From: Patescibacteria group bacterium
Lineage (GTDB): Bacteria; Patescibacteriota; Minisyncoccia; UBA6257; 1-14-0-10-40-38
Reading direction: 5' to 3'
DNA: 64,000 bases
Assembly: GCA_038064975.1 (NCBI GenBank)
Contig: JBBTRX010000002.1
Location: 880 to 64,879 of the forward strand
The translations under genes and the position numbers were made by a program. How positions within the stretch are numbered: position 1 is the first letter of the stretch; each line of letters opens with the position of its first letter. Under the pieces are notes generated by a model. It had not been told where the DNA came from. It searched no databases and was given only the letters and a program-made list of their open reading frames with translations. Of this stretch, positions 23,111 through 46,419 are shown piece after piece.

Positions 23111-23770
23111 CTACTTGCGACGAACGAAGACCCAGCGGTAGTCGGCGAACCAGAAGAGGTCAGCGCTGCCGCTGCTACCGTCCAACCAGACTTCATCGCC
23201 ATCGCGCCTGAGGATGAACACGCTCAGGCTGCCGCCCGAGTCCGCGATGGGTTCCATTCCAATGAGAACCCAGTCGTTCATCGGTTGGTCCAGGTACTGC
23301 AGTCGGAGCTGAGGACCGACTTCTGCAGAGCAGAGATCCAAGCCCAGTTCTCGAGCTCGCTCGTAGATCTGAGCTCTGGTCGCGCCCTTCTTGAAGCCAA
23401 GATCAGCAACGGAAACCACGACGAGGTCGAGAGAAACTTCTTCGGCAGCTACCGTGAAGGCAGGTTTGCCCAGGATGTCGTTCGCCCAATTGCTGATCTT
23501 CATGCCCGCCTTCTTCAAGGCTGAACGGAAGTCGGCGGCGGTCTTCAGGCCAGTGTCGAGTTTCACCTGTTTCCAGGTGGCGAAGTCGATGGGCCCCAAC
23601 CCGACGAACTTGCGGAATGCCGATCGGTCAGGAACCGTCCCACCCTGAATCGCTTGGATGAGATCAGTCAGGTATCCATCATGGAGAACTCTCAAGTCCT
23701 CGGAACTCGGGTCGTGTTGGCCAATCAAGGTGAGTGTGTGTGCTGCTTGCGGGAATGTCGAAGTGCTCAT
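23111..23770 (-). CDS. hypothetical protein encoded in high-GC island 1 (possible SUKH/Smi1-like fold, very tentative)
   Basis: 219-aa ORF; GC by eye about 58% versus about 43% in flanking genes; own promoter and terminator; C-terminal ..GDEVWLDGSSGSADLFWFADYRWVF.. loosely reminiscent of SUKH-family immunity proteins; no firm family. Confidence 0.5.
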   Translation of the reverse strand: MSTSTFPQAAHTLTLIGQHDPSSEDLRVLHDGYLTDLIQAIQGGTVPDRSAFRKFVGLGPIDFATWKQVKLDTGLKTAADFRSALKKAGMKISNWANDILGKPAFTVAAEEVSLDLVVVSVADLGFKKGATRAQIYERARELGLDLCSAEVGPQLRLQYLDQPMNDWVLIGMEPIADSGGSLSVFILRRDGDEVWLDGSSGSADLFWFADYRWVFVRRK

Positions 23771-34972: not shown

Positions 34973-36688
34973 CTACGGCATGACAATACCTCTTATCCTC
35001 CGCACCCCAGAACCAACCGCTTCTTCTTTGGCAATTTTAAATGTTCCAATTTCTCCCGTATGTGTAACATGGGGACCACCGCAGAATTCTTTTGAGAATG
35101 CGGTTTCCAAAGATTTTCCAGCAAAATAGACTTTTACTTTTTCCGGATATTTTTCTTTAAAGAAATAAAGTGCTCCCGTTTTTTCTGCTTCTTCTTTAGA
35201 CATTTCTTTATACTGCATTGGGACATCTTCTTGAATCACACCGTTTACAAGTGATTCTACATTTTTAACTTCTTCAGGAGTTAGTTTACGCGGAAACGAA
35301 AAATCAAACCGTGCGCGCTCTACGGTAATATCTGATCCTTTCTGTGAAACTTCAGAACCCAAAACTTTGCGAAGCGCCGCTTGGAGTAAATGCGTAGCCG
35401 TATGAAGTCGCGTTACTTTCTTGAGCTCGTCTTCATCTTTTGCTTTAAGCTCTCCGGTATTGAGGATGAGTCCGTGCCCGCCGAATTTTTTCTCCTGCCC
35501 CGCGCGAGAGATTTCTTGATGTCGCTTGAATTCTTCATCAAACGCTTCACGAGTAAGCTCGCTCGCTTTTACTCCCCCAACTTCTTTGATAATCTCGTAT
35601 GGCAATCCAAATGTTTCATAAATCTTAAACGCATTCGCAGCATTTACAGAAGAAATTTTTTCGAGCTCCTTTAATCCAACCGCAAGCGTTTTAGAGAATT
35701 TTTCTCGTTCCTCTTGATAGACGTCGTGAATCGTATTGAGTACAAGATTTCTATATGTTGATTGATATTCTTTTACGACAATATCAAAACGAGGTTCAAG
35801 CCCCCCTCCAAGGCCGTACACCATAAGACGACGCATTAATCGTCTCAATACATATCCTGCTTCTTTATTTGAAGGACGTACGCCGTCAGAAATTAAAAAT
35901 GAAATGCCACGAATATGATCAGCAAAAATTCTTCCTATTCGTTCGTCTATGTCATGAGGCAAAGAATTGAAAATTGACTGAAATAAATCAGTTTCAAAAA
36001 TTGTGGAAACGTTTTGCGAAACCATAGCCAAGCGCTCCAGCCCCATACCCGTATCAATACCGGGCGTTTTCAAATCTGTAAGTTTTCCACTCGCATCTTG
36101 ATAGTATTGGTTAAAAACCACATTCCAAATTTCTACTGATTTTCCCGCAGAGTTTTTTACATAGATTTCCGTGGTTGGTCCGCATGGCCCCTCACTCCCC
36201 GTCGGTCCCCAAAAGTTATCCGCTCGCCCCATTTTCTTTACAACGATATTTGAATCAAGTGATTTCCAAATCTTTTCAGATTCCATATCAGCTGGAACAT
36301 TATCCTCTCCCGCAAAAACAGAAACATAGTCAATTTTGAGCCTCATCACATCAGTAATAAATTCATGAGCATATTGAATAGCTTCTTTTTTAAAATAGCC
36401 ACCAAAACTAAAGTTCCCCAACATTTCAAAGAACGTGAGGTGCGACTCATCCCCTACTTCATCAATATCAGACGTGCGAAATGATTTTTGGATAGACGTC
36501 GTGCTCTGTGCACCAAAATCATGTTCTGCATCAAGCTCACCCGTAAAATACTTTTTAAACTGTTGCATCCCCGCGGTAGTCAAAAGCACCGAAGGATCAT
36601 CCGGAATAAGCGAAGACGAAGGCACGACAGCGTGCCCCTTGGACTTAAAAAATGCTAAGAATTTCTCTCGTATCTCTTGAGAAGACAT
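34973..36688 (-). CDS. alaS: alanine--tRNA ligase, short form (catalytic, tRNA-recognition and editing domains; no C-Ala domain)
   Basis: about 571 aa from Met MSSQEIREKFLAFFKSKGH; class II AlaRS N-terminal motifs (..FEMLGNFSFGGYFK..), editing-domain Zn motif (HTATHLL.., ..CGGPHVTHTGEIG..); start chosen downstream of an in-frame promoter (see promoter feature). Confidence 0.82.
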   Translation of the reverse strand: MSSQEIREKFLAFFKSKGHAVVPSSSLIPDDPSVLLTTAGMQQFKKYFTGELDAEHDFGAQSTTSIQKSFRTSDIDEVGDESHLTFFEMLGNFSFGGYFKKEAIQYAHEFITDVMRLKIDYVSVFAGEDNVPADMESEKIWKSLDSNIVVKKMGRADNFWGPTGSEGPCGPTTEIYVKNSAGKSVEIWNVVFNQYYQDASGKLTDLKTPGIDTGMGLERLAMVSQNVSTIFETDLFQSIFNSLPHDIDERIGRIFADHIRGISFLISDGVRPSNKEAGYVLRRLMRRLMVYGLGGGLEPRFDIVVKEYQSTYRNLVLNTIHDVYQEEREKFSKTLAVGLKELEKISSVNAANAFKIYETFGLPYEIIKEVGGVKASELTREAFDEEFKRHQEISRAGQEKKFGGHGLILNTGELKAKDEDELKKVTRLHTATHLLQAALRKVLGSEVSQKGSDITVERARFDFSFPRKLTPEEVKNVESLVNGVIQEDVPMQYKEMSKEEAEKTGALYFFKEKYPEKVKVYFAGKSLETAFSKEFCGGPHVTHTGEIGTFKIAKEEAVGSGVRRIRGIVMP

Positions 36689-40996: not shown

Positions 40997-41269
40997 ATGA
41001 GAAATTGCGCTCACTGCCAAAAAACATCAGCAATGGGAGGAACGCGGAAATTGCTTCGCGGCCATTACAATCCCACCAATTGGAGTCGGAAATATCCAAA
41101 CCTCCAGAAATCACGCCTTCCGAACGGAAAACGCGCGCTTTTGTGCACCCAGTGCATGAGAACCTTCGCACGAGACGCCAATAAAAAAGGTTTAGTAAAA
41201 ACCGCACCGCATATAACAACTCTTGCGCCCGCCGAAGAAAATAAGAATCTAGAAAAAGCAGTAGCATAA
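40997..41269 (+). CDS. rpmB: 50S ribosomal protein L28 (C4 zinc-ribbon type), tentative
   Basis: 90 aa; CAHC..(41 aa)..CTQC cysteine pairs and ..RGHYNPT..KYPNLQK.. resembling the L28 motif (..SH..R.T.R...PNLQ..); divergently transcribed from dnaG; strong terminator follows. Confidence 0.55.
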   Translation: MRNCAHCQKTSAMGGTRKLLRGHYNPTNWSRKYPNLQKSRLPNGKRALLCTQCMRTFARDANKKGLVKTAPHITTLAPAEENKNLEKAVA

Positions 41270-41296
41270 AAAAGCGCGTAATACGCGCTTTTTTGT
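41270..41296 (+). terminator. rho-independent terminator of rpmB
   Basis: AAAAGCGCGTA-ata-CGCGCTTTTTTG, perfect 8-bp stem plus T6. Confidence 0.7.
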
Positions 41297-41390
41297 TGCG
41301 GTACTCCAAGAAAAACGATATGCTCGTCATAGCAATAAGAGATAGTTCTTAGCATTCCATTGTTATGAATAGCTTAGGAAGAGTGTTATA

Positions 41391-41464
41391 CGGAGTGTAG
41401 TATAGTGGCAGTACGCAAGGCTGGGGGTCTTGTAGCCCGGGTCCGATTCCCGGCACTCCGACCA
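41391..41464 (+). tRNA. tRNA-Pro (anticodon GGG), CCA encoded
   Basis: Acceptor CGGAGTG/CACTCCG, D stem GTAT/GTAC, anticodon stem CAAGG/TCTTG with loop CTGGGGG, T-arm CCGGG-TCCGATT-CCCGG, discriminator A then CCA. Confidence 0.75.
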
Positions 41465-41503
41465 CTGTTACATTGTTAATGATACTAGTAATAAAGAACG
41501 ATT

Positions 41504-42244
41504 ATGAAAAAAATCACCATAGGCGCACTATTTCTCGGAATCGCCGTTGTAGCCGGAATATCTCTCTTCAATACGGATATTTTTAAATCTGAAGCAGAAA
41601 TTGACCTTCCACTTGGCGCAGATGTTTCGGAGACGATAGAAAAAGATTCGGAATCCGAAATACCAGGCTTCTTTATGACAGACATTCCTTTTATTTCCCA
41701 AGCGCCCCTCCTTGATTGGAGCTGGCCATTCAAAACCTCTTGCGAAGAAACTTCGCTTCTCATGGCACATAAATATCTCACTGGAGAAGCGATAACGCCC
41801 GAGACATCACAGGCAGAGATCCTTGCTATCGTTGATTTTGAAAAAGAAAACTATACCATCTCGAGCGGAAGCGCCGCCGCTCAAATTGCTCGACTTGCAC
41901 GCGATTACTTTAAATTTGATGCAGAAGTCCGCTACGATATAACACTGGACGATATCAAGCGCGAAATGGTCGCTGGCAATCTCGTTCTCATCCCAACCGC
42001 TGGCCGCGAACTCCAGAACCCCTACTTCAAATCCCCCGGCCCCATTTATCACATGGTTATCATGAAAGGATATACGCCGACTGGATTCATCGTGAATGAA
42101 CCGGGCACGCGGTATGGCGCTGACTACGTGTATTCAAATGAAATTTTGGAACAAGCGATACGCGACGTCACGATGAAGGATTGGGATGTTCCTATCGCTG
42201 TAACTAATAGAACCGCGATGGTAGTTATTAATGTAAATAAATAA
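41504..42244 (+). CDS. secreted/membrane-anchored peptidase C39-like domain protein (tentative)
   Basis: 246 aa; N-terminal signal anchor MKKITIGALFLGIAVVAGISLF; ..FISQAP..W..CEETSLLMA.. resembles the Cys-containing motif of C39-like (PF13529-type) papain-fold proteins; by pattern only. Confidence 0.45.
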   Translation: MKKITIGALFLGIAVVAGISLFNTDIFKSEAEIDLPLGADVSETIEKDSESEIPGFFMTDIPFISQAPLLDWSWPFKTSCEETSLLMAHKYLTGEAITPETSQAEILAIVDFEKENYTISSGSAAAQIARLARDYFKFDAEVRYDITLDDIKREMVAGNLVLIPTAGRELQNPYFKSPGPIYHMVIMKGYTPTGFIVNEPGTRYGADYVYSNEILEQAIRDVTMKDWDVPIAVTNRTAMVVINVNK

Positions 42245-42257
42245 TACTTAAAAAACT

Positions 42258-42824
42258 ATGCTTAAAATTGGAGACTCATTACCAGCAAAGCTTTCTACTG
42301 CCGCATTTCAGAATGATAAGGAAATAAAAATTGATTTTGATAAATATCGAGGAAAGTGGCTCGCTATCATCTTTTATCCTGCGGATTTCACATTCGTTTG
42401 CCCAACCGAATTAGAAGAAGCGGCTCATTTGTATCCAGAATTTAAAAAACTTGGCGCAGAAGTAATGTCAGTTTCTACGGACACGGTATTCGTCCACAAA
42501 GCTTGGCACGATCACTCCCCTGCTATTAAGAAAATAAAATTTCCCATGCTTGCCGATCCTACGGGAAAGCTATGCCAACTCTTCGGAACCTACATAGAAG
42601 AAGAAGGACTCTCCCTCCGTGGAAGCTTTCTTATTAACCCTGAAGGTAAACTGGTAGTAATGGAAATCAATCACAATGACATCGGACGCAATGGCAAAGA
42701 ATTACTCCGCAAGCTTCAAGCCGCAAAATTTGTAAATGAACATAAAGGGCTTGTATGTCCCGCAAGCTGGGAGCCAGGCAAGAAAACATTAAAGCCAGGC
42801 ATGGATTTGGTTGGCGAGATATAG
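42258..42824 (+). CDS. peroxiredoxin (typical 2-Cys, AhpC/TSA family)
   Basis: 188 aa; peroxidatic Cys in FTFVCPTE and resolving Cys in VCPASW; thioredoxin fold. Confidence 0.9.
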   Translation: MLKIGDSLPAKLSTAAFQNDKEIKIDFDKYRGKWLAIIFYPADFTFVCPTELEEAAHLYPEFKKLGAEVMSVSTDTVFVHKAWHDHSPAIKKIKFPMLADPTGKLCQLFGTYIEEEGLSLRGSFLINPEGKLVVMEINHNDIGRNGKELLRKLQAAKFVNEHKGLVCPASWEPGKKTLKPGMDLVGEI

Positions 42825-43038
42825 CTCCGACATCTCTCACAAGAACCGGCGTTGCTCATACTCCAGCGGTATGAGCCCGCCTGCCTCTCGTGCTCGCGAC
42901 TCTCACGAGACCAAGCTCGCTCGCACTCCGAGAACTTCTTGTAGAGAGATATCCTCGCTTAGATGTCTAAAGGTAAACTCGCTTGTAGTGTTGTGAGGCA
43001 ATAAACGGCTCAGGGGTGCGTGAGTTGTTTCTATAAAA

Positions 43039-43067
43039 ATTGACAAATATATCTTCTTATGCTAATA
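43039..43067 (+). promoter_or_regulatory. consensus sigma70 promoter (TTGACA-N17-TAATAT) of high-GC cassette 2, immediately followed by a GC hairpin plus T-run
   Basis: TTGACA aatatatcttcttatgc TAATAT; then GGACCG-gcgtt-GCGGTCC CTTTTT at 43071..43096 (possible attenuator or leader structure); AGGAG 7 nt before the ATG at 43151. Confidence 0.5.
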
Positions 43068-43150
43068 TAAGGACCGGCGTTGCGGTCCCTTTTTAGGACC
43101 ATCCAACGACAGAAGCCCTCTTTGAAAACTACACAAGAAAGGAGCGCGTC

Positions 43151-44272
43151 ATGGCGCAACCCTGTCACACGATCGCATCACACCACAGATCCCACTGGGA
43201 TGAAGTGGTGGCACGCGTCATCTTCCAGAAATACGGAGACCATCTCTTCCCAGGAGCAAGCGAAGCCAAGCTCGTCTTCTGGAAAAACGGTGATACTCCC
43301 GACGGGAGACCCGCAAGCGCATGGGAAGCCGAAGGAGTGATTCCCATCGGAGTCGGCCATGGCCGCTTCGACGAACACCTCGCGACTGGCGGTCGCATTC
43401 CGAAAGAATGCGCAACAACGCTCGTTGTCAAAGCATTTGGTATCTTCGATGGCTCCTCTCCGGAGTTCTATCGATTGATTCTCTTCACGCTAGCAACGGA
43501 CGAAGGCCCCGCACAGCATCCCTTCGACGTTTCCGGTGTCCTGAAGGCGATTCACAAACGCCATCCGGAAAACCCCGAGATCGGAGACTCATGGGCAGTG
43601 GAAGCCGTTCATGTCATCCTCACACCGAAAGGTGAATCTTTCGTCAATCTCGGAGCAATGCTCCGCGAGATGAGCATCGACGCCTCATCGCACGAGAAAC
43701 TGGTGCGATTCGCAAAACGAGTCGACACCCAGCCGCCCGAGAAACCGGACCATCCCTTTGACATCATGGCTATCTCACGGAAGATGCCTGATGCAGAAGC
43801 GAGAATCTGGCTCACGACAGCACTCGTCGCACTTCGCGACGGTCAACTGGAATTTACCGGAAGTGCGATTGAGTTCGCTCGCCACGCTACCATCCTGGAA
43901 GTGGATATCGGAAAACGTTTCCCGTTCCGCATCGCAACGATCGAATCGGAAAACGAACGGATCGCCTCGTTCGCCCGCAGCTCTCTCGGCTGTGAAGCAG
44001 CGATCGTGATCCAACGGCATCCGCGAAGCGGCATCACGCAGATCTCCACCGATCATCGCAAGGTGATGCAAGAACTGGCGGACGAGATCGCAAGATCAGT
44101 GATCGCTGCGGAACCGCAAGATGGCGGGCAGTGGTATTACCACGAAAAAGCTCGCGCCGTCTTGAACGGAAGCAGTTCACACCCAGACGTCACACCTTCC
44201 CAGCTTTCGCTCGATACGATCCAAGAGATCGTCGAGAGAGTCGTAAAGGCAAGCTCCCGCAAGTCTGCCTAA
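43151..44272 (+). CDS. hypothetical protein encoded in high-GC island 2 (possible UPF0160/MYG1-like metal-dependent hydrolase, tentative)
   Basis: 373 aa; GC by eye about 55%; N-terminal His/Asp-rich motifs TIASHHRSHWDEV and IGVGHGRFDEH resemble the H.G.FH.DE / H.YDHH metal-site motifs of the MYG1 family; length fits; untested. Confidence 0.45.
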   Translation: MAQPCHTIASHHRSHWDEVVARVIFQKYGDHLFPGASEAKLVFWKNGDTPDGRPASAWEAEGVIPIGVGHGRFDEHLATGGRIPKECATTLVVKAFGIFDGSSPEFYRLILFTLATDEGPAQHPFDVSGVLKAIHKRHPENPEIGDSWAVEAVHVILTPKGESFVNLGAMLREMSIDASSHEKLVRFAKRVDTQPPEKPDHPFDIMAISRKMPDAEARIWLTTALVALRDGQLEFTGSAIEFARHATILEVDIGKRFPFRIATIESENERIASFARSSLGCEAAIVIQRHPRSGITQISTDHRKVMQELADEIARSVIAAEPQDGGQWYYHEKARAVLNGSSSHPDVTPSQLSLDTIQEIVERVVKASSRKSA

Positions 44273-44412
44273 ACGACTCGCTACAGAACCCCAAAGCCAA
44301 TCGGCGGTGGGGTTCTTCTTTTTTTCATAAGGATAATATTATGATAAAATGATGATTAATAGTATTTTCTCCACTATACCCCAGTCGCTAGTGGCTCAAC
44401 CTTATCTGATTC

Positions 44413-44982
44413 ATGTACGAACCAAAAAAATACGATCACCTTATCGGAACGCCGGGATTTAGTAATACGCTTCTCGCCAACCATTTCACGCTCTACGAAG
44501 GATACGTAAAAAACGTAAATACGCTTCTTGAGAAGCTAAAGAGTATAGAACCAAGCCCGGAAGCAAGCGAGCTTAAGCGCCGATTTGGATGGGAATGGAA
44601 TGGTATGCGTCTCCACGAATACTATTTTGGAAATATGACTCGGGAAGCGCAACAAGCAACAAGTGACTCACAACTGACAACAAAATTAAAAGAACAGTTT
44701 GGAAGCGTAGATGCTTGGGAGAAAGATTTCCGCAATACTGGCGCTATGCGCGGCATCGGCTGGACCATGTTAGTGCACGATCGATCAGCAAAGAAACTAA
44801 TGAATGTATGGGTTACAGAACATGATATGGGACACCTTGCCGGAACAGAACCTATTCTCGTGCTAGATGTCTTTGAACATGCATATATCACCGACTATGG
44901 CATTAAACGCGCAGACTACATTGAATCGTTTATGAAAGCCATTAATTGGCAAGAAACAGAGCAACGATTCAGAAATAGTTAA
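44413..44982 (+). CDS. superoxide dismutase, Fe/Mn family (divergent N-terminal domain)
   Basis: 189 aa; metal-ligand context conserved: ..ANHFTLYEGYV.. (His), ..RLHEYYF.. (His), DVFEHAYI (Asp/His of the DVWEHAYY motif). Confidence 0.72.
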   Translation: MYEPKKYDHLIGTPGFSNTLLANHFTLYEGYVKNVNTLLEKLKSIEPSPEASELKRRFGWEWNGMRLHEYYFGNMTREAQQATSDSQLTTKLKEQFGSVDAWEKDFRNTGAMRGIGWTMLVHDRSAKKLMNVWVTEHDMGHLAGTEPILVLDVFEHAYITDYGIKRADYIESFMKAINWQETEQRFRNS

Positions 44983-45007
44983 CCAGTGAAAGAGTTGATA
45001 AGCTGAA

Positions 45008-45036
45008 AGAAAAAAGACCCCTCGTGAGAGGGGTCT
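45008..45036. terminator. terminator hairpin AGACCCCTC-gtga-GAGGGGTCT with A-run/T-run (serves the minus-strand gene 45055..45300; possibly bidirectional)
   Basis: 9-bp GC-rich stem; on the minus strand followed by TTTTTTC. Confidence 0.5.
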
Positions 45037-45054
45037 CTATATATTGAATATTTT

Positions 45055-45300
45055 CTATAGAAGTTTCTTAAAATCAAGATGTTGAGAGATTGTACATCTT
45101 CCCGGACAACCATCTGTTGGACACCAAATACCAACCATTTCTGATTGAGGGATAGAGCTAGAAAGACTAGCTGGAGTCCAATCAACTCTATCTTCTTCTT
45201 CAAGAATAAATTTTGTTTCGCAACATTCGCAAACACACTCCCTTCCAATCCACCATTTTTTAGTCGGCTGAGGTAATGACCCTTGTTTCAGGATCTTCAT
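45055..45300 (-). CDS. small Cys-rich protein (81 aa), possible zinc-ribbon
   Basis: Cys clusters CVCECC and CPTDGCPGRC; own terminator; no family recognised. Confidence 0.35.
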   Translation of the reverse strand: MKILKQGSLPQPTKKWWIGRECVCECCETKFILEEEDRVDWTPASLSSSIPQSEMVGIWCPTDGCPGRCTISQHLDFKKLL

Positions 45301-45405
45301 GGAGAGACTCCTTAGTGTGAGAGAAAAACGTCCTACACACGAGCATAAACCCGTTTTAATATTTAATCAAACTCCTACCCTATACCCTAGTGGCTAACCC
45401 CTATT

Positions 45406-46419
45406 CTATGCTCCAAAATTCCTCTTCCGCTTATTAAAATCTGCGAGCGCGACTTGAAATTGAGGGACACCGAAATCAGGAAATAGTTCCTCAGCAAAAT
45501 AAAGCTCGGCATATGCCGCTTGCCACGGCATTATTCCCGAAAGACGCTGTTCCCCGCTCGTGCGGATGATAAGATCTGGATCGGGAAAATTATGCGTATC
45601 AAGGGCGGAAGAAAACGCTTCTTCGCCGATTTCCGTTTGTGATCCGCGAAGTTGATTTGCAGCTCTTAGAATCTCATCTCTCCCACCATAGTCCAAAGCA
45701 AGACCCAGTGATCCTTTTTTATAGCGTCGCGTTGTTTCTTCGAGATTATGGAGTTCGGTTACGATATCCTGAGGTAAGCGATCTTTTCTCCCAAAATGTT
45801 TAAAGCTCGCTTCCTGTTCATGTAATTTTGTTTCAATGCGTTTTAGATATCCGCGAAAAATACGCATCAAATGATCTATTTCATATTTGCTCCTGTTCCA
45901 ATTTTCAGTTGAAAAACCCCACAGCGTAAAATAAGGAATCCCCTTTCGGATCGCCTCTTCTAAGAGTGCCATGGTCGTTTCCGCACCCTGCTCATGGCCC
46001 TTCGCGGCTTCCCTTCCCTGCTGTTTTGCCCATCTACGATTTCCGTCAGGAATAATCACAACGTGCTTCGGCACGATTTCTTTTTTTAAATAATGGTCGG
46101 ATAAATTTTTAAACGCGGCAATTTTATCACTGACATAATTTCCCTTCCGCTCAATACTGAATTCCGAAAAATCATTCCGGGCGTCCTCCCGTCTAAATTC
46201 CAGCGATTCAATTTTTGCGAGAGTGGAACCCGCATAGCACCAGTCCAAAAACTTTTTAAGGTTAGATTCTTCCCCTTCCGCAATCGCAAAAACACTCCCG
46301 TCAGATACATTTTCCGCAAAACCAAAAATACCGAGCTTATCGGCTTCTGATTTCATTCCTCTGCGCATAAGGACGCCCTGCACTCTTCCTTTTATAGTAA
46401 TGCTGATGCGTTTCATCAC
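45406..46419 (-). CDS. uppS: fusion protein: N-terminal acylphosphatase domain plus C-terminal undecaprenyl-diphosphate synthase (cis-isoprenyl transferase)
   Basis: 337 aa; residues 1-90 carry the acylphosphatase signature (ITIKGRVQGVLMRRGMKSEADKLGIFGFAEN); residues about 110-337 are UppS (..VVIIPDGNRRWA.., ..RTSGEQRLSGIMPWQAAYAELYF..). Confidence 0.8.
   Translation of the reverse strand: MMKRISITIKGRVQGVLMRRGMKSEADKLGIFGFAENVSDGSVFAIAEGEESNLKKFLDWCYAGSTLAKIESLEFRREDARNDFSEFSIERKGNYVSDKIAAFKNLSDHYLKKEIVPKHVVIIPDGNRRWAKQQGREAAKGHEQGAETTMALLEEAIRKGIPYFTLWGFSTENWNRSKYEIDHLMRIFRGYLKRIETKLHEQEASFKHFGRKDRLPQDIVTELHNLEETTRRYKKGSLGLALDYGGRDEILRAANQLRGSQTEIGEEAFSSALDTHNFPDPDLIIRTSGEQRLSGIMPWQAAYAELYFAEELFPDFGVPQFQVALADFNKRKRNFGA

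Follow-up and report, generated by a model that had tools for sequence, protein, structure and literature searches.

MYG1/UPF0160 (PF03690) is a 3'-5' RNA exonuclease found in eukaryotes and some bacteria. In the human protein the catalytic DHH comprises residues 106-108, a conserved C-terminal His is present at position 344, and motif I has the variant form H-x-D-E, with which the enzyme is active (PMC6582341). In the DHH superfamily the middle His of motif III binds metal, and the DHH and GGGH motifs are characteristic of the subfamily (PMC4081065). In this study, we analysed a gene of a Patescibacteria group bacterium whose product has MYG1 as its nearest characterised relative. The gene lies in a stretch of 64,000 nucleotides (assembly GCA_038064975.1, contig JBBTRX010000002.1, positions 880 to 64,879 of the forward strand), and this whole stretch is referred to here as the window. 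A previous sequence-only reading of the window had described a 373-codon gene between peroxiredoxin and superoxide dismutase genes, and both the open reading frame and its neighbours were found as described. We propose that the gene encodes an as yet unannotated, predicted metal-dependent phosphoesterase that is a distant relative of the eukaryotic RNA exonuclease MYG1, and that it is an ordinary gene, vertically inherited and monocistronic, which has a strong promoter, a ribosome-binding site and an intrinsic terminator of its own; to this explanation as a whole we assign a probability of roughly 0.6. The gene and its predicted parts are as follows.

43151..44272, plus strand: open reading frame, 373 amino acids, ATG start.
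43151..43885, plus strand: predicted N-terminal DHH-like catalytic domain, residues 1-245 (alignments A1 and A2, AlphaFold model, Foldseek, hhalign to MYG1).
43622..43855, plus strand: subgroup-specific helical insertion, residues ~158-235, about 78 residues (gap pattern of A1).
43886..44272, plus strand: predicted C-terminal DHHA1-like domain, residues 246-373, and stop codon (A1, AlphaFold model, Foldseek).

Scans of Pfam, NCBIfam, PHROGs and PADLOC gave no meaningful match to the protein, and sequence searches of the PDB with the protein itself and with profiles A1 and A2 returned chance matches only. An AlphaFold (AF2) model, with a mean pLDDT of 90.3 and a pTM of 0.73, has an N-terminal domain that closes with a long linker helix (residues 214-245). 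When this model was compared with the PDB using Foldseek, the best match was MjRecJ (6tvv_B; E = 2e-4, probability 1.0), and the top matches were all DHH-family proteins, namely 6tvv, RecJ2 (7ykv and 7yik), PPX1 (2qb6) and the DHH domain of PF0399 (5yh1), in alignments that span both domains (E = 2e-4 to 1e-3, probability 0.94-1.0). The next matches were the C-terminal DHHA1-like domains of alanyl-tRNA synthetases (AlaRS; 2zvf_F, probability 0.90, and 5t76). Because DHH enzymes head the list and AlaRS DHHA1-like domains follow, we assign the protein to the two-domain DHH/DHHA1 type, a fold that, judging from the model, it very probably has. The DHH- or MYG1-like fold anticipated by the sequence-only reading is thereby borne out, with DHH-family phosphoesterases as the top matches.

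We then compared sequence profiles. The human MYG1 sequence was validated against PF03690 (E = 1.8e-137 over the full model, 458.7 bits), and a profile of 18 chordate MYG1s (A3) was aligned by hhalign with the family profile (A2). The score was 37.8 (P = 4.2e-4) over 147 N-terminal columns, as compared with 16.9 +/- 3.6 (maximum 34.4) for 60 column-shuffled MYG1 profiles and 17.2 for the reversed MYG1 profile. A control profile for NrnA, as deep as that of MYG1 (18 sequences) and validated via 5j21, scored 20.7 against the family, which is within its null (15.8 +/- 3.4), and 22.3 against MYG1. Reciprocal hmmsearch between the family and MYG1 gave P ~ 2e-4 in both directions, and hhalign with single-sequence templates of MYG1 and NrnA gave scores at the null level. 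In Foldseek, whose PDB library does not include the MYG1 crystal structures (24ah and others), a model of MYG1 was assigned to the same DHH superfamily at a level as weak as that of the window protein. Since the MYG1 score exceeds all nulls while the NrnA control remains at the null level, the affinity is specific to MYG1, and by profile comparison the N-terminal domain of the family is closest to MYG1/UPF0160.

The aligned columns place the motifs of both families in register. H11..H15-x-D17-E18 of the family corresponds to H50..H55-x-D57-E58 of MYG1, so that motif I (H15-x-D17) has a His for the first Asp as in MYG1; G67-V-G-G corresponds to D93-V-G-G, R-F-D74-E75-H76 to R-Y-D106-H107-H108, and D117 to a motif IV-like Asp. 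The sequence-only reading had pointed to a motif spacing resembling MYG1/UPF0160, and this holds in so far as MYG1 is the closest known family; strict membership does not follow. We speak of the closest family rather than of membership because the family has DEH for DHH and Gly for the motif II Asp, and because none of 11 members is matched by PF03690 (MYG1_exonuc), even with the threshold at E <= 10. On these profile data the family lies within the DHH superfamily as a sister of MYG1, or a variant of it, and is not a member of PF03690.

With MYG1 the family shares, in the models, a two-domain DHH/DHHA1 architecture with a near-identical order of secondary-structure elements and a linker helix of 30-38 residues, as well as the unusual motif I in which His stands for the first Asp and is followed by D-E (H-x3/4-H-x-D-E), and a (D/G)-V-G-G ... 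R-(Y/F)-D-x-H block. It differs from MYG1 in having D-E-H for DHH and Gly for the motif II Asp, in a loop between GG and RFD that is 6 residues shorter, in a C-terminal four-Cys tail that most members have and MYG1 does not, and in its range, which comprises Patescibacteria and WOR-3. The stand-alone DHH/DHHA1 proteins of the archaeal RecJ/GAN type (MjRecJ 6tvv, RecJ2 7ykv, PF0399 5yh1) and yeast PPX1 (2qb6) are the best structural matches in the PDB; however, identity to them is only 10-14% with TM-scores of ~0.2-0.39, the family does not retain the canonical DXD / D / DHH / GGGH motifs, and sequence profiles yield no match. NrnA, a nanoRNase and pAp phosphatase (PF01368 + PF02272), is likewise a stand-alone DHH-DHHA1 enzyme of similar size, and its motif I (H-x-x-P-D-x-D) can be aligned with that of the family (H-x-x-P-H-x-D), but its DHH and GGGH motifs are not conserved in the family. 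As a separate observation on this domain type, the alanyl-tRNA synthetase encoded in the window (34973-36688, minus strand, equivalent to L001 1823-3538; 571 amino acids, tRNA-synt_2c + tRNA_SAD) appears to be without the C-terminal DHHA1-type C-Ala domain, the type of domain assigned to the C terminus of the protein studied here.

A word-indexed homologue search recovered just 11 proteins, one of them an identical NCBI entry. The idea of a tiny family that this gave was overturned by an exhaustive profile search, in which the cluster representatives (clusters at 50% identity) numbered 1,931, or about 2,000, at E <= 1e-3 and 969 at E <= 1e-30. For a survey of loci, one genome per GTDB species was scanned, giving at least 80 species-level loci (L005-L084), which come from many classes of Patescibacteria and from a tight high-GC clade that includes loci labelled WOR-3. 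The family is thus large, so far unannotated and widespread in the tiny-genome Patescibacteria, and it is present in WOR-3 as well. Several loci are labelled 'uncultured Gammaproteobacteria' (L006, L010, L011, L013, L018, L022 and others); their GC content is 29-45%, and their family genes, and for L010 also the flanking genes, resemble those of loci labelled Patescibacteria. These TPA assemblies appear to carry unreliable taxonomic labels. In the tiny genomes of Patescibacteria many of the conserved genes are without annotation, and the DHH/DHHA1 assignment of about 2,000 clusters would provide a testable biochemical hypothesis for a widespread 'hypothetical protein'.

In alignments A1 and A2 the conserved N-terminal residues are H11, H15, D17 and E18, the block G67-x-G-x-G-R-F-D74-E75-H76, E86-C87-x-x-T-L-V, D117 and H123-P-F-D126; towards the C terminus they are A275-R276, W328 and N339-G340-S341. 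The two His/Asp clusters picked out by the sequence-only reading, SHHRSHWDEV (residues 9-18) and VGHGRFDEH (residues 68-76), coincide with the most conserved positions of the family. Most members, for example P0004-P0010, end in a four-Cys tail, C-x4-C-x7-C-P-W-Y-x2-G-L-x-R-C-R (last ~40 columns of A1/A2), a module that may bind Zn or an Fe-S cluster and that the window protein, P0002 and P0003 do not have. The helical insertion is found in A1 only in the window protein, P0002, P0003 and P0011. As HPFD occurs at residues 123-126 and again at 201-204, and a pairwise self-alignment gives E = 0.001, the insertion apparently arose as a duplication of a helix-loop-'HPFD' element.

On the basis of these sequence and model comparisons, a divalent-metal site (Mn2+ or Mg2+) would be formed by H11, H15 and D17 (variant motif I), D74-E75-H76 (variant motif III) and probably D117/D126, and would lie in the interdomain cleft, with the DHH-like domain on one side and the putatively substrate-binding DHHA1-like domain on the other. 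The enzyme would hydrolyse phosphodiester or phosphomonoester bonds of a nucleotide substrate, and short RNA, degraded from its 3' end, or small nucleotides of a related kind would be the likeliest substrates. The metal ligands, the catalytic activity and the substrate are in this scheme predicted from sequence and model. If the site is as proposed, it adds the combination H-x-D-E / G / D-E-H to the DHH active-site sequences known so far.

Several points weigh against the assignment and the proposed chemistry. The AlphaFold model was built from 11 sequences only, and the Foldseek matches are modest in both E-value (2e-4) and TM-score (0.39). PF01368 (DHH) and PF02272 (DHHA1) match neither the window protein at E <= 1 nor the 11 members at E <= 10. 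The hhalign probability of the MYG1 match is 34% and the match covers the N-terminal domain only, the C-terminal domains alone having no profile similarity. In the aligned motif III, D74-E75-H76 (each >90% conserved), Glu replaces the metal-binding middle His; the motif II Asp (D93 of MYG1) aligns with the invariant G67; and GGGH is missing. A conserved L-L-N339-G340-S341 occupies a similar near-C-terminal place, although the C-terminal domains cannot be aligned to MYG1, and H331 of the window protein, in W-Y-Y-H, which was considered as a counterpart of MYG1 His344, is not conserved in the wider family. Finally, the gene neighbourhoods of the family offer no functional clue: across the surveyed loci no conserved operon or neighbourhood was found, the top neighbour being a cysteine desulfurase (IscS) gene in 8/80 and an IscU-like gene being nearby in 6/80, which makes IscS and IscU the commonest neighbours.

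The altered motifs could also mean that the protein is a catalytically inactive, Cdc45-like scaffold, in which the DHH-like fold has been kept for a binding or regulatory role and the phosphoesterase chemistry has been lost; an invariant Gly for the motif II Asp, Glu for the metal-ligand His of DHH and the lack of GGGH would all fit. Glu, however, is itself a competent Mn2+/Mg2+ ligand. The remaining putative ligands H11, H15, D17, E18, D74, E75 and H76 are, moreover, invariant or >90% conserved in a family whose mean column identity is 28%, and such ligand conservation amid overall divergence is typical of an active site under selection. MYG1, with the same H-x-D-E variant of motif I, is an active enzyme (PMC6582341). 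We therefore regard loss of activity as improbable and, taking MYG1 and stand-alone DHH-DHHA1 enzymes as models, consider that the protein is likely to be an active hydrolase.

The choice of substrate is more tentative. The fold could be right and the substrate something other than RNA, in which case the protein would be a pAp phosphatase, a cyclic or linear dinucleotide phosphodiesterase, an exopolyphosphatase/pyrophosphatase or a single-stranded DNA exonuclease. The DHH superfamily covers all of these activities (PMC4081065, PMC9779919), and the structural neighbours of the window protein include RecJ-type DNA/RNA exonucleases and the exopolyphosphatase PPX1. In addition, the C-terminal, substrate-binding domain lacks profile similarity to that of MYG1, and specificity may therefore differ. 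Against this stand the sole specific sequence-profile affinity, which is to MYG1, an RNA exonuclease, and the neighbourhood survey, in which genes for sulfur assimilation, c-di-AMP cyclase or polyphosphate kinase were not recurrent beside the family gene. A substrate of this other kind thus seems to us rather unlikely; RNA, suggested by analogy, is a possible substrate to which we would give somewhat less than even odds.

Whether the gene is native to its host is the second question raised by the locus, and the following features bear on it.

41391-41464: tRNA-Pro(GGG), 1,687 nt upstream of the gene.
42258-42824: AhpC/Prx (prx) gene, upstream neighbour.
42823..42959, plus strand: GC-rich imperfect palindrome (long hairpin) of ~137 nt, directly after the prx stop codon.
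42841..42855, plus strand: copy 1 of the 15-mer direct repeat AAGRACCGGCGTTGC, inside the palindrome and 228 nt upstream of copy 2.
43069-43083, plus strand: copy 2 of the 15-mer, overlapping an inverted repeat and the predicted transcription start.
44413-44982: Fe/Mn superoxide dismutase (SOD; sod) gene, downstream neighbour.

The sequence-only reading had taken the gene for a high-GC cassette and the GC-rich stretch upstream for a possible integration scar. On this view the gene, with its promoter and terminator, would be a recent horizontal insertion between prx and sod near tRNA-Pro, and the palindrome and the repeats would be its trace. Several observations speak in favour of it. The gene, put at about 55% GC, has a measured GC content of 0.561 against 0.451 in the remaining window, and at third codon positions its GC (GC3) reaches 0.61, compared with about 0.40. 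The gene forms a transcription unit of its own, the tRNA-Pro gene does lie about 1.7 kb upstream, a non-random 15-mer direct repeat and a palindrome precede it, and the window contains a second high-GC gene at 23111-23770.

Comparison with related genomes leads to a different conclusion. On L085, the contig of the closest homologue (P0002), the order is dnaG (minus strand), tRNA-Pro(GGG), family gene, sod, and identities to the window are 66% for DnaG, 65% for SOD and 49% for the family gene, so synteny has been kept at ~65% identity of the flanking proteins, and it extends to five further species. In L007, L015, L017, L034 and L044 the family gene adjoins PAP2(-)-SSB(-)-S6(-) or UppS(-)-PAP2(-), which is the block found 3' of sod in the window. 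The gene is present on 7/7 contigs with identical Prx and SOD, and neither presence/absence polymorphism nor an empty site was seen in these contigs, in L085 or in the five other species; the family gene co-diverges with flanking orthologues in three genome pairs. No integrase, transposase or other mobility gene is present within +/-10 kb of the gene, no relatives of the family were found on viral contigs, and both copies of the 15-mer lie upstream, so that the gene is not bracketed. The prx-sod interval, for which transfer had been suggested, thus holds the gene in all seven contigs, and L085 holds it in synteny; with the absence of mobility genes and a GC excess that is family-wide, transfer is not supported, and the upstream GC-rich stretch loses its interpretation as an integration scar. 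The foreign-cassette view is largely refuted by synteny and appears highly improbable, and we conclude from the sequence comparisons that the gene has been inherited vertically. GC-rich islands need not be foreign DNA even when they have a promoter and a terminator of their own.

There is an insertion or deletion beside the tRNA gene, but it involves other genes. A C39-like peptidase and prx pair (window 41504-42824), located between tRNA-Pro(GGG) and the gene studied here, is missing in L085 (786-922), where the tRNA is followed directly by the promoter of the family gene; the extra DNA relative to L085 is this pair and not the family gene. Prx (62% identical to the window Prx) and SOD are also encoded 3-4 kb upstream of the family gene, on the opposite strand, in L010 (863-3035) and L045 (1420-3598), which are species with a very large GC excess of the family gene. 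With Prx and SOD near the gene in the window, L010 and L045, and SOD near it in L085, there is a weak recurrent association with oxidative-stress genes.

The GC excess is a trait of the family. In the window the gene accounts for one of two outstanding 1-kb GC bins, and its GC3 of 0.61 compares with 0.37-0.45 in the neighbouring genes. Across the surveyed loci the family gene exceeds its flanks by 0.062 GC on average (by >0.08 in 28/80, maximum +0.233), with contributions of +0.116 at GC3, +0.049 at GC1 and +0.015 at GC2. It has the highest GC3 of its locus in 43% of cases (Mann-Whitney against neighbouring genes, p = 2e-15), and the GC3 deviation of recurrent neighbour families is ~0. The excess is largest in low-GC hosts. 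It is one-directional, common to related hosts and not tied to GC-rich donors, which speaks against a foreign cassette. In the window gene the third-position excess consists of C only (C3 0.39 against 0.19, G3 unchanged), which is also unlike the signature of a GC-rich donor; across the family C3 and G3 rise equally.

Five other explanations of the excess were considered and set aside. Amino-acid composition is ruled out by a GC2 difference of just +0.015 against +0.116 at GC3, and a local embedded element by the uniformity of the excess across gene deciles. A C-specific codon bias across the family is ruled out by the equal rise of C3 and G3, the C-only pattern being confined to the window gene. 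Transfer from GC-rich hosts does not fit, as the high-excess genes have their nearest relatives in further low-GC hosts and the excess is shared among related hosts. Translational selection is unlikely, given the low GC3 of the window genes for ribosomal protein S6, SSB and RpoD.

The offset is persistent. At four-fold degenerate sites, GC (GC4) in three syntenic genome pairs was as follows.

L010 / L022: family gene 0.65 / 0.69, flanking orthologues 0.26-0.41.
L055 / L059: family gene 0.47 / 0.38, flanking orthologues 0.16-0.32.
L006 / L018: family gene 0.33 / 0.37, flanking orthologues 0.00-0.29.

Identity at shared four-fold sites is near random (0.33 against 0.26 for the window and L085, 0.30 against 0.28 for L034 and L017), and the excess is kept in both pairs, that is, in syntenic orthologues at near-saturated synonymous divergence, where the relic of a foreign origin should have decayed. 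As the offset is family-wide and persistent, atypical GC is not diagnostic of foreign origin here; the high GC is a puzzling family trait that does not point to such an origin. From this persistence we infer a gene-specific force on synonymous GC, in the form of selection on mRNA or DNA or of biased gene conversion. Candidates could be mRNA selection, through resistance to AU-directed RNA decay or autoregulation by the gene's own product, and locally biased gene conversion, and a persistent excess in vertically inherited, syntenic orthologues could reveal either. Taking function and composition together, the family could represent MYG1's sister lineage in bacteria, one that acts as a short-RNA (nanoRNA) or 3'-5' RNA exonuclease of reduced genomes and whose synonymous GC is held above that of the host by a gene-specific force. 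We regard this combination as a long shot; if true, it would mean that one protein family keeps a compositional equilibrium of its own throughout a phylum, which is rare. The second high-GC gene of the window ('cassette 1'; 23111-23770, minus strand) is a 219-amino-acid open reading frame with a GC3 of 0.695 against 0.36-0.37 in its neighbours and no Pfam match.

The signals for expression of the MYG1-related gene are listed here.

43040..43068, plus strand: predicted sigma-70-type promoter, with -35 TTGACA (43040-45), a 17-nt spacer, TG (43060-61) and -10 TAATAT (43063-68).
43069..43094, plus strand: inverted repeat GGACCG-N6-CGGTCC (43071-43088) followed by CTTTTT, an element that includes copy 2 of the 15-mer.
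43139-43144, plus strand: Shine-Dalgarno sequence AAGGAG, 6 nt 5' of the ATG, read from the sequence.
44285..44326, plus strand: predicted intrinsic terminator, with a 9-bp GC-rich outer stem and an inner stem-loop, then UCUUUUUUUC.

The consensus promoter noted in the sequence-only reading is present and is the only one of equal stringency in the 64-kb window (0.10 expected), and the -35 and TG-extended -10 are kept upstream of the orthologues in L085 and L087, where spacer and leader differ; on this conservation we regard the predicted promoter as real. The terminator folds with -21.8 kcal/mol (z = -4.22; 0/200 shuffles as good), and analogous sites with a hairpin and a T-run are found 3' of the orthologues in L085 and L087. 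The gene would be monocistronic, because a strong terminator follows it and sod has its own promoter-like site (44322-44350).

The inverted repeat that follows the -10 had been taken for a 5' stabilising hairpin or an attenuator. A 6-bp GC-rich stem and CTTTTT are indeed present at 43071-43094, and each orthologous leader has some small 5-bp stem, which would favour a functional RNA element. However, the hairpin is not beyond chance: the leader folds no better than shuffled sequences (z = -0.77), its minimum free energy structure uses a competing pairing, and terminator-like sites are common in the region (9 against 4.3 +/- 2.3 in shuffles). As the -10 ends at 43068, transcription would be expected to start some 5-9 nt further on, at ~43073-43077, and thus inside or beyond the 5' arm (43071-43076). 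Neither the hairpin nor its sequence and U-tract are conserved in L085 or L087, and an Rfam scan of 41000-45500 identified the tRNA only. An RNA element is improbable on these grounds, and attenuation in particular is unlikely because the hairpin is without statistical support, lies on the expected start and is not conserved. The repeat is more likely to be a site at the DNA level where transcription begins, or a product of chance.

A 15-mer repeat of this kind occurred in 0/300 simulated regions, and AAGRACCGGCGTTGC is found in this genome only among 88 loci. The positions of the two copies, one ahead of the promoter and the other over the start site, point to a DNA-binding regulator, and the 15-mer might, speculatively, be a regulator-binding motif specific to this genome. 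The GC-rich, hairpin-forming stretch described upstream of the promoter is confirmed as a long imperfect hairpin, whose RNA fold (42820-42990) has -54.5 kcal/mol (z = -2.69; 1/200 shuffles as good); it has no Rfam match and no T-run after it. Downstream of sod, the window encodes an undecaprenyl-diphosphate synthase (Prenyltransf; 45406-46419, minus strand) whose N-terminal acylphosphatase domain (PF00708 + PF01255) makes it an unusual fusion.

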